This document shows positions 8,101 through 12,282 of a DNA stretch of 64,000 nt, piece by piece. Made by a program: the position numbers and the translations under genes. The stretch spans positions 8,897 to 72,896 of the forward strand of contig WAKB01000005.1 in the NCBI GenBank assembly GCA_015523545.1, in the 5' to 3' direction. Each line of letters begins with the position of its first letter. Within the stretch, counting starts at the first letter, position 1. Below the pieces are notes generated by a model. It had not been told where the DNA came from. It searched no databases and saw only the letters and a list, made by a program, of their open reading frames with translations. The stretch comes from Candidatus Geothermarchaeota archaeon. Its GTDB lineage: Archaea; Thermoproteota; Nitrososphaeria; Geothermarchaeales; JDFR-13.

Positions 8101-8517
8101 CTAGATCAGATCACCCTCAAACTCCTTTTTTACACCTATCCTACTCGCTAGGCCAGCAAGGATATCATATATCTTTCCCATCCTCTCAAGAAAACTCTCC
8201 TTCGTCTCCAGCTCCAAAATCTTATCCGTGATCTTGAAGACGGCGAAGGAGTTCGACTGGTTCTTATGCTTCTTCAGAGTAACCGTTATTGAGCCATCAT
8301 CCTCATAGTACGCCAGGTAATAGGAGTAGTCCTCATCCAACTCGCTGGAGCCAAGCCTGATAACACGACAGACAGATCCAGGCCTATACTCTACACACTC
8401 AGCCTTCTCGAGCAGGATACGTACCTTCTCCACTAGGGATGACGGGTTGGAAACAGGATCCTTATTCTCGGGCATAGGCTCATCCCTCAATACTCCCGCC
8501 CCCCCCCAGTTACACAT
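8101..8517 (-). CDS. Hypothetical small protein (about 124-138 aa)
   Basis: ORF only; I recognise no motif. The likely true start is the ATG at 8475 (MPENKDP), downstream of a G9 run. It has its own AT-rich TATA-like region in the 135-nt gap after the HerA-like gene. Confidence 0.4.
   Translation of the reverse strand: MCNWGGAGVLRDEPMPENKDPVSNPSSLVEKVRILLEKAECVEYRPGSVCRVIRLGSSELDEDYSYYLAYYEDDGSITVTLKKHKNQSNSFAVFKITDKILELETKESFLERMGKIYDILAGLASRIGVKKEFEGDLI
8499..8507. repeat. Homopolymer C9 (G9 on the coding strand)
   Basis: Counted directly (8499-8507). It lies between the most upstream ATG (8517) and the likely start (8475) of the 138-aa ORF. Confidence 0.9.
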
Positions 8518-8652
8518 ACATCGGGGGGCATATACTTATCACGTCTCTGAAAATATATAAGTTTTAAAGGTGTTGGGATATATGCATGTAAAAAGCGGAT
8601 ATATACCAACTGTTTTTCCTCTGGGGTCTAGCCAGGTCTAATAACATGCCTC

Positions 8653-10422
8653 TCAAGCCCTCTTGCTTAGTAACCAGTCCAAGACATAGTCCTCATTATT
8701 ATCAGTCCTAACCTCTACAGGTATGTTCTTATACTTCGTGGCTACATGGCTCATGAATAGCCACTCCCCCATGTCATAGGCCTGTACCTTATCGATGATC
8801 GACTTACTGATGGAGAATGCATCAGCGACGACCGACCTATCATATGTCCTGGGCAGGGTGGAGACGAAGTATGTGTGGAGCTGCTGCATAATACTAGTGT
8901 TTAGATGGGCGACACGCTGAGTCACTATCCAGCCGCCAACCCCATACTTCCTCCCCTGCCTAAATAGCTTCTCAAGAGCAAGGTTAGAACGATCCATGTT
9001 CCTAGCACCCCTACTCTCACGGGAGATGAACTCATGCGCCTCATCAACCACGAACAAAACCTTCCTACCGAGGCCGGCCGTCTTCTTGAGTAGGAAGATC
9101 TCGTCGATCAGCCTGGCTATATATTCCCGGGCCAGGAAGTCCTCCGGTATGTAGAGTAGGTATAGCCGCTCCTCCCCATTGTATAGGATCCGGCGAGCAA
9201 ACTTCCTTATAGTCTCGTAATCCTTCTCAACCTCTTCTGGTGGCTCCTGGATCAAGGCTATCAGTGATTCGAGCTTAATCCTCACAGTACTCCTCTGGTT
9301 TAGTGGATTAGCCACCTCTCTCAAGGTCTCCAGGACATCTCGATGCATGTCTTCATAGTTCTCCTTGAAGGTCTTTAGATCCATCCTCCTATCCATCTCG
9401 TAGAGGCTCCTCACAAGCTCCCTAAGCTTTACACGCCCATCCAAGGTTAGCTTATCAGCATCACGCAGGACAGAGTTGATCTCACCTATTACAGACTCTA
9501 TCGTCACCTCATCATCCTCTAGGTATAGCTTCTTAGTCGGGATATTCATGAGTATGTCGCGGACGATCTTGGGGTCTAGCCCTTTCTCAGCCATCCTCTG
9601 CTGGAGGGTCTCCGGATAAACCACCGTCTCCCTAAAACTGTCTATTGGTGTGGAGGGGTCTAGATAGATCGCCCCATACCTCTCCAGCATATCGATGATG
9701 TTTATCGGGTACTCGCCAGTAATGTCTAGGACCACGGCTACAAGGTCATCCACGGTATCCATAATCTTCCTGAGGAGGTTGGAGGTTAGGTTGGACTTCC
9801 CCGTACCGGTGTAGCCGAATATACCGGTGTGGTATCTATGTAGGGTGCTTATATCTATCTTGGCCGGGACTTCATATCCCTTCACCCTTCCTACCTCCAC
9901 TGTATAGCTACCCTCCTTGTTCACGAGGTATTGGTAGGTCGATGCTGATAGGAGGTGCGCCCTACTACCTGTGAGTGGTGTCAAGAGCTTCCTCATCACC
10001 ACCCTATCCCTGTTTATCAGGTAGCCGGTGTTCACCGCCCTTACAGCCATCCAGTTATTCCCATCCTCGTGGAACCAGCTCTCCTCAATATTCTCCAGGA
10101 CATATTCCTGTAGCTTATAGGGTAGTGAGACCCCGACACTCCCCATCTCCATGTGTAGCGGCATGATATCGGCTACGTCGAATATTATGAACCAGTCCTC
10201 ACCGTTATACCTCCTCTCAACACCTATGAGGATGGGGTCGTGGAGCCTGTCGAAGACCTCGATCTGGAAGGGCGCCACTATATATGCAAGGCCCTCCGAG
10301 ACCCCCATCTTCCCCTCCTTATCAGTTGGGTTCTGCACGGTGTAGGCCGCTATCCTGGCGTCGAACTTCTCGTCCAACACGTCGAATAGTGGTTCTACAC
10401 CCTCCACTTCCTTCCCCACCAT
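8653..10422 (-). CDS. HerA-like (FtsK/HerA superfamily, DUF87) ATPase
   Basis: Walker A GYTGTGKSN, Walker B VLFVVDEAHEF (HerA-type DEAH) and GRKYGVGGWIVTQR (arginine-finger region). There is an N-terminal beta-rich (HAS-barrel-like) region and a helical insert of about 230 aa between Walker A and B. The ATG lies 2 nt after the stop of the NurA-like gene. Confidence 0.8.
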   Translation of the reverse strand: MVGKEVEGVEPLFDVLDEKFDARIAAYTVQNPTDKEGKMGVSEGLAYIVAPFQIEVFDRLHDPILIGVERRYNGEDWFIIFDVADIMPLHMEMGSVGVSLPYKLQEYVLENIEESWFHEDGNNWMAVRAVNTGYLINRDRVVMRKLLTPLTGSRAHLLSASTYQYLVNKEGSYTVEVGRVKGYEVPAKIDISTLHRYHTGIFGYTGTGKSNLTSNLLRKIMDTVDDLVAVVLDITGEYPINIIDMLERYGAIYLDPSTPIDSFRETVVYPETLQQRMAEKGLDPKIVRDILMNIPTKKLYLEDDEVTIESVIGEINSVLRDADKLTLDGRVKLRELVRSLYEMDRRMDLKTFKENYEDMHRDVLETLREVANPLNQRSTVRIKLESLIALIQEPPEEVEKDYETIRKFARRILYNGEERLYLLYIPEDFLAREYIARLIDEIFLLKKTAGLGRKVLFVVDEAHEFISRESRGARNMDRSNLALEKLFRQGRKYGVGGWIVTQRVAHLNTSIMQQLHTYFVSTLPRTYDRSVVADAFSISKSIIDKVQAYDMGEWLFMSHVATKYKNIPVEVRTDNNEDYVLDWLLSKRA

Positions 10423-10424
10423 GG

Positions 10425-12233
10425 CTACCGCCTCCTATGCTCAACCCTAGCACGGAACTCCCTAAACCTCCATGGGAGCATGAATGTCTTCGACTCCCTC
10501 ATAATACTGTAGATCCTACCCTCCATCAGGCGGGAGACCCTGTCCCTAATAACCCGGATCATTCGCTTCACCTCCTTATCAGCTAGGAAGAGGAGGTAGT
10601 TATGGCCAGCCGCCTCTAGGGGGAGGGGCTTGTCAAACATGGATAGGATGTAGAGGATCGCGTTGTCAAGAGGGTTATACCCTCCATCACCATCCTCGAT
10701 GTATAGCTCTACACCCACCCTACTCTCCTTCGTGGGCCGCCTCCTCCTGAAAACCACCTCCTCCCTCCTTACGAACTGGTTGTCAGGCTCCCGTGGGAGG
10801 TAGAACCTGTCGAAGAAGAATATAGGACTCCTCATCCTCACGTCACCCCTGACCCACTCCCTAAGCTGGAAATACTGCCGTATCAAGAACCGGGGAGGCG
10901 GGACAGCCCCCCTGGGCGCCTCTAGACCAGTCCTATACACCAGTGCTGAGAATACATTGTCGTATCCGACCGACCTCCACGGCATGGGTAGATCCTCCGG
11001 CTGCCTAGCCGATATCAGTGTGAATAGGTTCCTATCCGTCCTGGCTATCCTGGTCAGCTGCTCCGACCCCCGCAGACCACCCAGGTATGGGGCTACAGAC
11101 CTGATTATATCTGTAACAGCCGTGTCCTTACCCATACCTATAACAAGCTTATCACTACTCCTCACAATCTCGGCCAGCCTATAGATCTCCACTATGCCTA
11201 TGAGGCTTAGATCAGCCACCGTTACAGGCCTACCCTTCACGTATAGGGGGTGCTCCACCGCCCCACCCCCGAATAGCTCCTCTAGGAAGCCGTCGCACAC
11301 CCTGGATACACGGGTCCAATAGTCCTTCACACCGCTTGCCAGGGCTAGGCTGTTATGCATCACGTCCTCAACCAACATGTTGAATAGCTCCTTCCCCAGA
11401 TTCCTCTCCAAACGACTGAGAAGCTTGTCTATCCTAGGAGATGTAGGTATCACCCTCCCAAGCTCCCTAAGATCAACAATGCCATCCTCATCCGCAAGGC
11501 TCAGCATACGGTCGACTACATAGGCAAGCTTCTGGCCGGGTATGTACTGGAGGCCTAGGAAGCCCGGCCTAGGACCTATGTGGAGTGTGAGGTAGATATC
11601 GATCGGCTGTATAGCCTCTCCACCCATAGCATCCCCGTCCGTGAATACCCAGTCCCAGTCCTTGTCAAGCATATCCCTGAGATTCCTGGAGTATGGCCCA
11701 TAGGTACTGGCTATAGGCCTATCGAGGAAGACGATCTTAACATCATCCCTCTCCAGGGACTTCCTAGCTATGTAGAACTCCCCAACCGTCATAACAGCGT
11801 TGGGGATGCTCTCTATAGTCCCCTTTACAGACCTCTCCTCCAGTGCAGAGCCGAAACCACTGGCCTCCACGGAATCCTCTAGCGAGTAGGGCACGACCTT
11901 ATAGATACTCTCCCTCGCAGAGATGTCCGACTCATCGAGCTTGACACCTATACCGTCACGGCTAACAGTGAACCTCGCCTCAGCGGTGGCGACGGCTATA
12001 AACATGGTTATTATGTCAAGCGCCACCGAGTGGTCCATACTACCGTCTATACCTATCGCTGTATACTCGCCCTCGCCCCACAGCCTATATAGGTAATTCT
12101 TTGCAGCCGCCTCGTCCAGCGTCCTAGTGAGGCGTGACGTATCTACCCTGCCCTCTACCCTCTCCAAGGAGGTTCTGAAACGATTCTCGAGGAACTGGAT
12201 CCCCCTCTTAAACTCATCAACGTCCCAGGACAT
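10425..12233 (-). CDS. NurA-domain nuclease-like protein, unusually long (602 aa)
   Basis: TAIGIDGSMDH matches the first catalytic (I/V)DGS motif of NurA nucleases. It is immediately upstream of, and coupled to, the HerA-like ATPase. A TATA-like AAACTAAATATATTT lies about 25 nt upstream of the ATG at 12233. Confidence 0.6.
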   Translation of the reverse strand: MSWDVDEFKRGIQFLENRFRTSLERVEGRVDTSRLTRTLDEAAAKNYLYRLWGEGEYTAIGIDGSMDHSVALDIITMFIAVATAEARFTVSRDGIGVKLDESDISARESIYKVVPYSLEDSVEASGFGSALEERSVKGTIESIPNAVMTVGEFYIARKSLERDDVKIVFLDRPIASTYGPYSRNLRDMLDKDWDWVFTDGDAMGGEAIQPIDIYLTLHIGPRPGFLGLQYIPGQKLAYVVDRMLSLADEDGIVDLRELGRVIPTSPRIDKLLSRLERNLGKELFNMLVEDVMHNSLALASGVKDYWTRVSRVCDGFLEELFGGGAVEHPLYVKGRPVTVADLSLIGIVEIYRLAEIVRSSDKLVIGMGKDTAVTDIIRSVAPYLGGLRGSEQLTRIARTDRNLFTLISARQPEDLPMPWRSVGYDNVFSALVYRTGLEAPRGAVPPPRFLIRQYFQLREWVRGDVRMRSPIFFFDRFYLPREPDNQFVRREEVVFRRRRPTKESRVGVELYIEDGDGGYNPLDNAILYILSMFDKPLPLEAAGHNYLLFLADKEVKRMIRVIRDRVSRLMEGRIYSIMRESKTFMLPWRFREFRARVEHRRR

Positions 12234-12282
12234 CTACACCGTGGATAATCATGGCCCATGAAATATATTTAGTTTTTCCTGC

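Follow-up and report, generated by a model that had tools for sequence, protein, structure and literature searches.

A third NurA–HerA pair with an enlarged nuclease in a Geothermarchaeota genome, and its relatives across the Thermoproteota

NurA and HerA form a nuclease–translocase machine that is essential in the archaea tested, and whose role is debated between end resection and the destruction of foreign DNA (PMC12977600). In the canonical systems of Sulfolobus solfataricus (2YGK/4D2I), Pyrococcus furiosus (3TAL) and Thermococcus kodakarensis (9X1L-9X1P), a NurA nuclease of RNase H/PIWI-like fold with an Asp-Glu-Asp plus conserved Lys motif works with a DUF87 partner, in which a long helical domain lies between Walker A and Walker B; the two genes lie side by side in the same direction and are translationally coupled. 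That one genome can hold several NurA–HerA paralogue pairs is already known for the Thermoproteota (PMC3396285, PMC9976892). Pyrobaculum has three or more, one of them in a nurA-csm6-herA cluster linked to CRISPR (PMC3396285), and Sulfolobus carries the NurA-like/HerA-like pair SiL_0094/0095 (PMC9976892). Here we describe a further pair, found in a 64-kb stretch of DNA from a Candidatus Geothermarchaeota archaeon (hereafter the window), that encodes a 602-residue NurA-fold protein and a 589-residue HerA-family ATPase. The pair shares all of the canonical traits listed above, its catalytic motifs being colinear with those of NurA.

A number of differences set the window pair apart. Canonical NurA proteins span 278-451 residues (PMC3300031), against 602 here; the middle domain of the window nuclease is enlarged and winged-helix-like, and the canonical His gives way to an invariant Asp. 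The ATPase falls in a separate clade from canonical HerA, with about 50 extra residues before Walker A and about 50 between the Walker motifs, and the pair is not linked to mre11 or rad50. Whereas the published paralogue pairs are recognised by the Pfam NurA model, the window nuclease is not; and, in contrast to the nurA-csm6-herA cluster, the two genes lie 2 nucleotides apart with nothing between them and with no csm6 or CRISPR array nearby. We judge, with moderate confidence, that the pair represents a distinct and ancient subfamily of the NurA–HerA machine that serves chromosomal DNA processing or genome maintenance and not mobile defence. An earlier note, made from the letters of the DNA alone, had drawn attention to the two open reading frames (ORFs); their positions, their lengths and the 2-nucleotide gap are as it described.

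The 602-residue protein gave no meaningful match in Pfam, NCBIfam, PADLOC or the PDB, whether searched by phmmer or through profiles of 6 and of 33 sequences. Structural modelling was performed using AlphaFold 2 (AF2). A model built on a 6-sequence alignment was poor, with a predicted local distance difference test (pLDDT) score of 55, while a second model, built on 33 orthologues, reached a pLDDT of 85 and a predicted template-modelling (TM) score of 0.89. When this second model was compared with the PDB using Foldseek, all 10 significant matches were NurA proteins (E 3e-8 to 7e-6, probability 1.00). The best was T. kodakarensis NurA taken from a HerA–NurA complex (9x1m_G, E 3.3e-8), and the others included P. 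furiosus NurA (3tal, 3tai and 3taz) and S. solfataricus NurA (2ygk, target TM-score 0.68); the first match beyond these ten had an E of 0.04. No significant match was found in a viral structure library. As judged from the predicted structure, the protein has a NurA fold, which bears out the identity proposed for it in the earlier note.

At the level of sequence, membership of the NurA family is transitive, since it is the orthologues that match Pfam NurA (PF09376) and not the window protein itself. The model matches 20 of the 33 orthologues at E ≤ 0.1, with a best value of 3.6e-6, and exceeds its 21-bit cut-off in orthologous frames of about 600 residues from six genomes (G057, G029, G018, G068, G042 and G038), where the alignment spans model positions 2 to ~170. 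The branch leading to the window's clade is long in the nuclease tree, which explains why Pfam NurA misses the 602-residue protein. Profile–profile alignment with hhalign against a 13-sequence NurA alignment paired the IDGS region alone under default settings (E 0.12); under relaxed settings the NurA motifs aligned in colinear order with an E of 0.001 and a low probability.

The modelled protein consists of N-terminal helices, a first part of the RNase H/PIWI domain, an enlarged middle domain, a second PIWI part and long C-terminal helices. Its extra length comes mainly from the enlarged middle domain, which is the equivalent of the P. furiosus NurA M domain, together with strands and long helices added to its second half. 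Within the middle domain, residues ~235-300 are modelled as a helix-strand-helix-helix-strand-strand arrangement, and in orthologues the same segment gives sub-threshold matches to the Pfam families TrmB, MarR and HTH_24. This winged-helix-like insert suggests DNA binding.

Conservation of the active site was read from an alignment of 33 sequences that are 25-41% identical to the window protein, with one close relative at 87%. Invariant across the alignment are D63, within the GIDGSMD segment (residues 61-67), E152, D171-R-P, K369-D-T and D552. In the hhalign comparison, D63, E152, D171, K369 and D552 are colinear with the IDGS, Glu, DGS, KTS and LAH elements of NurA, the second half of this series being weakly supported. 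The catalytic residues of P. furiosus NurA are D51, E105, D126 and H411 (PMC3300031); the first three correspond to D63, E152 and D171, in line with the earlier note, which had read the IDGS motif as that of the NurA catalytic site. The catalytic His is replaced by the invariant Asp552, with the caveat that the LAH motif aligns weakly (E 0.12). An acidic residue at this position has precedents, namely Glu280 in Thermotoga maritima NurA and Asp660 in Thermus thermophilus Argonaute (PMC3300031), which makes the resulting DEDD site plausible and probably active.

The partner is a HerA-family ATPase. Pfam DUF87 (PF01935), the HerA central domain, matches the 589-residue protein with an E of 1.1e-15 (58.8 bits, cut-off 23.2), the PADLOC HerA models are its best-scoring profiles (up to 4e-29), and the solved HerA chains 8wiv, 4d2i and 9x1l match it as well; a profile made from the ATPase alignment aligns with S. 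solfataricus HerA (4d2i) in two blocks. Walker A (GYTGTGKSN, with K209) and Walker B (VVDEAHEF, with D460/E461) are where the earlier note had read them; G.TG.GKSNL is conserved across 35 orthologues and DEA is invariant across the family. The same note had described an insert of about 230 residues between the two motifs. Most of this is the normal helical domain of HerA: from the Walker A Lys to the Walker B Glu there are 202 residues in S. solfataricus HerA (K154 to E356) and 252 in the window ATPase, an excess of no more than about 50. The NCBIfam equivalogs of HerA type (HerA_Thermprot, helicase_HerA, HerA_antiphage and CedD) score 57-68 bits, short of their cut-offs of 600-970. Since the mre11/rad50-linked HerA of the same genome also stays below the NCBIfam HerA cut-offs (38-49 bits), the low scores owe as much to a deep lineage as to paralogy.

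The source assembly comprises 1.15 Mb in 17 contigs and is ~90% complete, and a canonical operon is present in it. On contig C1 (246118-253394), nurA (404 residues), a 206-residue ORF, herA (636 residues), mre11 (Metallophos domain) and rad50 (zinc hook) follow one another. The window pair is thus not a sole machine whose mre11 and rad50 have been relocated, and its lack of linkage to them, as the earlier note had it, is borne out by neighbours that are TYW1, a small ORF and a ribonucleotide reductase (RNR). The 206-residue ORF of the canonical operon (C1:251575-252195) lies between nurA and herA and shares 68 nucleotides, in a different frame, with the beginning of the annotated herA. The sequence of this ORF, GEVYRLEGSDVVVYLL...GNFLYIDTGEGGVIVV, resembles the HAS-barrel N-terminus of HerA; in this assembly the canonical HerA may have been split, frameshifted or given a wrong start.

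A second pair lies on contig C8 (44795-48559), where a NurA of 335 residues and a HerA of 474 residues are flanked by three small ORFs of 134, 159 and 143 residues. Two of these small ORFs are clear paralogues of each other (BLAST 4e-9) with a winged-helix-like C-terminus. The C8 pair resembles the window pair in being a stand-alone NurA–HerA without Mre11-Rad50, in having an associated winged-helix element and in being conserved in Nitrososphaeria and Bathyarchaeia. It differs in its short nuclease, in carrying the winged-helix proteins as separate genes where the window pair has the module inside the nuclease, and in an ATPase that falls in another clade. The small C8 proteins were considered as possible relatives of the winged helix inside the window nuclease, and the idea was rejected, as BLAST finds no similarity. 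Between the window pair and the genome's other paralogues, canonical HerA included, BLAST similarity is barely significant.

The window pair is therefore the third NurA–HerA module of this genome. With a canonical operon elsewhere and a NurA fold in the 602-residue protein, it is an extra module as the earlier note proposed, though not the second that the note had supposed. Several co-evolving, vertically inherited pairs per genome are normal in the Thermoproteota, and three in one genome fits that pattern.

In its distribution, the pair is an old and widespread family, conserved among numerous uncultured archaea, and not an oddity of the window genome. A word-indexed homologue search had returned only 6 relatives, so that the family seemed rare; exhaustive searches corrected this picture and gave 127 representative clusters among 1.84 billion proteins. 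The large NurA–HerA pair is present in 49 of 301 genomes of the class (Nitrososphaeria, by record titles) and, more broadly, in 80 of 401 sampled Thermoproteota genomes, covering 47 of 162 genera. Lineage names are known for the 44 titled loci only. The named records comprise Geothermarchaeota, Nitrosocaldus, Nitrososphaerales, Nitrosopumilales, Conexivisphaerales, Pelearchaeum, Bathyarchaeia and Culexarchaeia, so that ammonia-oxidising lineages and Bathyarchaeia are among the carriers. All ten clusters sampled were called ‘hypothetical protein’ or had no name. Within the window's own family the pair occurs in 12 of 14 genomes, the two without it being 72-75% complete. Nearly all carriers have a single copy of the large NurA; two genomes, G001 and G391, hold two large NurA-like copies each, on different contigs.

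The two genes stay together across this range. In ~37 of 41 loci from Nitrososphaeria and Bathyarchaeia, the gene immediately after that of the nuclease encodes the ATPase, and most of these gene pairs overlap by 4 nucleotides or lie 2 nucleotides apart; remote relatives (E 1e-6 to 1e-41) are paired in this way too. Pairwise identities of nuclease and ATPase are closely correlated (Pearson r = 0.97), showing that the two proteins co-evolve. In a HerA-family tree built from ten genomes, the ATPases adjoining a large NurA form one clade, with a Shimodaira–Hasegawa-like approximate likelihood ratio test (SH-aLRT) value of 100. This clade is separate from those of the ATPases linked to mre11/rad50, to the trio of small winged helix-turn-helix proteins and to short NurA, and from the CedD-like clade. 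The nuclease tree groups by lineage, and the pair is inherited largely within lineages. A possible nuclease–ATPase fusion, a 1218-residue ‘open frame’ in G308, was rejected as two separate ORFs. One pair on a contig that bears a bacterial name, ‘Candidatus Acidoferrum sp.’ (L056, DASQZS010000093.1), is nearly identical to that of L069, a Bathyarchaeota metagenome-assembled genome (MAG), with branch lengths of 0.017 and 0.005; L056 is most likely a mis-binned archaeal contig and not a transfer.

By homology with the solved HerA–NurA complexes, the 589-residue ATPase would form a hexameric ring that, driven by ATP, threads double-stranded DNA through its pore and on into a dimer of the 602-residue protein, where the DNA strands would be parted and cut at two metal-dependent RNase H-like sites. 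The templates for this putative 6:2 assembly of translocase and nuclease are the cryo-electron microscopy and biochemistry of T. kodakarensis HerA6-NurA2 (PMC12977600) and the structural work on NurA (PMC3300031). A role in genome maintenance is the reading we favour, because the pair sits in a syntenic housekeeping context, is near-universal within families, is single-copy, follows lineage inheritance and co-exists with a canonical operon.

That context bears directly on the most serious rival, namely that the pair is an innate defence module: a RecBCD-like exonuclease–translocase that would load on free ends of viral or plasmid DNA and destroy both strands, its winged-helix module aiding target recognition or the sparing of self DNA. 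The earlier note had raised a link to defence islands, and the neighbourhood survey lends it no support. Among members of the window's family, the gene order (TYW1, pair, small ORF, RNR, malic enzyme) is kept down to 40% protein identity. In the wider family the pair sits beside genes for ribosomal proteins, a thermosome subunit, aminotransferases and others of this sort, and no other gene recurs beside the pair across lineages, defence genes included. No CRISPR array was found in the window, and the six neighbouring proteins gave no match to defence models except for a radical-SAM cross-match. The locus is not a variable or defence-island region.

Several points speak for defence. HerA-family hexameric motors are encoded beside their effectors in the anti-phage SIR2-HerA and DUF4297-HerA systems, and PADLOC HerA models are the best profiles for the ATPase; T. 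kodakarensis HerA–NurA cuts both strands, and an antiviral role has been proposed for it (PMC12977600); one Thermoproteales NurA–HerA paralogue pair is linked to CRISPR and csm6 (PMC3396285); and the phyletic distribution of the large pair is patchy. The effectors of the anti-phage systems are SIR2 and DUF4297 proteins, however, whereas the window ATPase has a NurA-fold partner and scores far below the curated anti-phage HerA cut-offs, as it does for the HerA-type NCBIfam models at large. In PADLOC itself, the nuclease has no match and the ATPase matches the HerA models only weakly. The near-universal presence of the pair in the window's family, and a protein tree that groups by lineage and does not point to frequent transfer, also argue against this explanation, and we regard it as unlikely.

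Less probable again is a motor for DNA transfer or chromosome segregation, in which a HerA/FtsK-type pump would move DNA at division or in cell-to-cell exchange while the nuclease processes the substrate. The precedent is Thermus, where the HerA-like TdtA and the NurA-like nuclease encoded beside it are both required for DNA donation (PMC5365140). FtsK is missing from archaea, and HerA is a member of the FtsK-HerA superfamily (PMC12977600); a role akin to that of FtsK has long been suggested for archaeal HerA, and the promoter of a Sulfolobus NurA-like/HerA-like pair carries a cell-cycle regulator box (PMC9976892). The Thermus system, which acts in transjugation by an integrative and conjugative element, is borne on a mobile element, whereas the window pair occupies a stable chromosomal context among housekeeping genes. 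No membrane anchor was found in either protein, nor a pilus gene or integrase nearby, and the genome has a separate CedD-like ATPase, which leaves this explanation very unlikely.

That ATPase is a lone HerA-family protein of 498 residues on contig C3 (27376-28872), which scores 164 bits on NCBIfam CedD (cut-off 600). CedD is the DNA-translocating ATPase of the Ced DNA-import system. The score suggests that this Nitrososphaeria genome may have a component of Ced type.

Finally, a catalytically altered or inactive NurA-like scaffold, with a regulatory or DNA-binding role beside the ATPase, would suit the absent canonical His, the failure of Pfam NurA on the diverged window protein and the DNA binding suggested by the winged-helix insert, but is highly improbable given that none of the four acidic residues predicted to bind metal varies among 33 sequences at ~30% identity, which points to selection on catalysis, and that an acidic residue in place of the His is compatible with activity in the T. 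maritima and T. thermophilus proteins (PMC3300031).

Several observations weigh against a maintenance machine of NurA–HerA type. The window nuclease itself matches no sequence library, its profile–profile alignment to NurA is weak under both settings, and the fourth catalytic residue was placed by the weaker, second hhalign alignment. Residues 1-125 of the ATPase, where the earlier note had seen a HAS-barrel-like N-terminus, match no profile or PDB sequence; in known complexes it is the HAS barrel of HerA onto which NurA docks. The pair is unevenly spread over the phylum, at 20% of genomes and 29% of genera, and three loci hold a large NurA without an adjacent ATPase. Even in its canonical form, HerA–NurA has been argued to degrade both strands and may be antiviral (PMC12977600), and a housekeeping context is therefore compatible with a defence role.

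The three loci without an adjacent ATPase (L054, L057 and L070) are high in GC and come from Conexivisphaerales, ‘archaeon’ and Nitrososphaerales MAGs. In each, the large NurA-like gene has no HerA-like neighbour and lies beside a Sua5/YrdC-like gene, with CO-dehydrogenase-like genes on the other side in two of the three. Their ATPase may be elsewhere or lost.

Coordinates of the pair, its motifs and the adjoining elements are collected in Table 1.

Table 1. Positions in the window of the nuclease–ATPase pair, its predicted functional residues and neighbouring elements
Feature	Position	Strand	Basis
602-residue NurA-fold nuclease gene	10425..12233	−	ORF list
589-residue HerA-family ATPase gene	8653..10422	−	Pfam DUF87, PADLOC HerA and PDB HerA matches
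Asp63 codon, GIDGSMD, NurA motif I catalytic Asp	12045..12047	−	Invariant in 33 sequences; hhalign
Glu152 codon, predicted catalytic Glu	11778..11780	−	Invariant; aligned with conserved NurA Glu
Asp171 codon, FLDRP, counterpart of the NurA ‘DGS’ Asp	11721..11723	−	Invariant D-R-P; hhalign
Asp552 codon, LADK, at the position of the canonical NurA catalytic His (LAH)	10578..10580	−	Invariant in 33 sequences; alignment weak
Winged-helix-like insert, residues ~235-300	11334..11531	−	AF2 model; sub-threshold Pfam matches in orthologues
Walker A, GYTGTGKS, G203-S210, K209	9793..9816	−	G.TG.GKSNL conserved across 35 orthologues
Walker B, VLFVVDE, V455-E461, D460/E461	9040..9060	−	DEA invariant across the family
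Transcription factor B recognition element (BRE)/TATA-like element AAAAACTAAATATATTT	12261..12277	−	~34 nucleotides upstream of the 602-residue gene ATG; sequence reading
138-residue ORF, function unknown	8101..8517	−	Own TATA-like element; no Pfam or NCBIfam match

At the junction of the two genes, which reads ...AGGAGGCGGTAGccATG, a Shine-Dalgarno-like GGAGG stands 9 nucleotides 5' of the ATPase ATG. The upstream neighbour is TYW1, identified by the Pfam domains Radical_SAM and Wyosine_form, and a 49-nucleotide gap separates its stop from the 602-residue gene. The BRE/TATA-like AAAAACTAAATATATTT lies within this gap and is probably the pair's own promoter, giving a short leader, since TATA-like elements precede not only the window pair but, at 25-40 nucleotides upstream, most orthologous loci too. 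Apart from these TATA-like elements, no conserved operator was seen upstream of the orthologous pairs. Further neighbours in the window are the 138-residue ORF, the RNR, whose orthologues carry Pfam ribonucleotide-reductase domains, and an MgtE-like transporter. The immediate neighbours are thus TYW1 and a small ORF without a family match, as the earlier note had them.

The 138-residue ORF was found by phmmer in loci L008, L009, L011-L014, L027 and L029 only, and it adjoins the pair, on the downstream side, only within the window's own taxonomic family. Because of this restriction it falls outside the widely conserved module, and it was rejected as a third component. In the region before it (8518-8652), a T-rich stretch follows the ATPase stop and precedes the TATA-like element TTTAAAACTTATATATTTT. 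A G9 run separates two candidate ATGs, and for this reason the start at 8475, which gives the shorter ORF, seems the likelier of the two.

Although multiple NurA–HerA pairs per genome are familiar in the Thermoproteota, the present subfamily, with its size, its internal winged-helix-like module, its invariant His-to-Asp change and its breadth across Nitrososphaeria and Bathyarchaeia, appears to be undescribed in the searchable literature. It is carried by about one fifth of sampled Thermoproteota genomes and yet is annotated as ‘hypothetical protein’, so that its description fills an annotation gap. It is conceivable, but quite unlikely, that the pair is an ancient third Thermoproteota machine with built-in winged-helix DNA recognition and an essential chromosomal job independent of Mre11-Rad50. 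If that were true, the job might be, for example, the clearing or resolving of DNA at replication termination or, in the manner of FtsK, at cell division, or the processing of stalled forks, and a housekeeping system would have been overlooked as sequence profiles miss it. The His-to-Asp change, in turn, offers a simple biochemical question. More generally, comparing the three paralogues, one tied to Mre11-Rad50, one accompanied by separate winged-helix proteins and one with an internal winged helix, could help to separate the roles of this machine.

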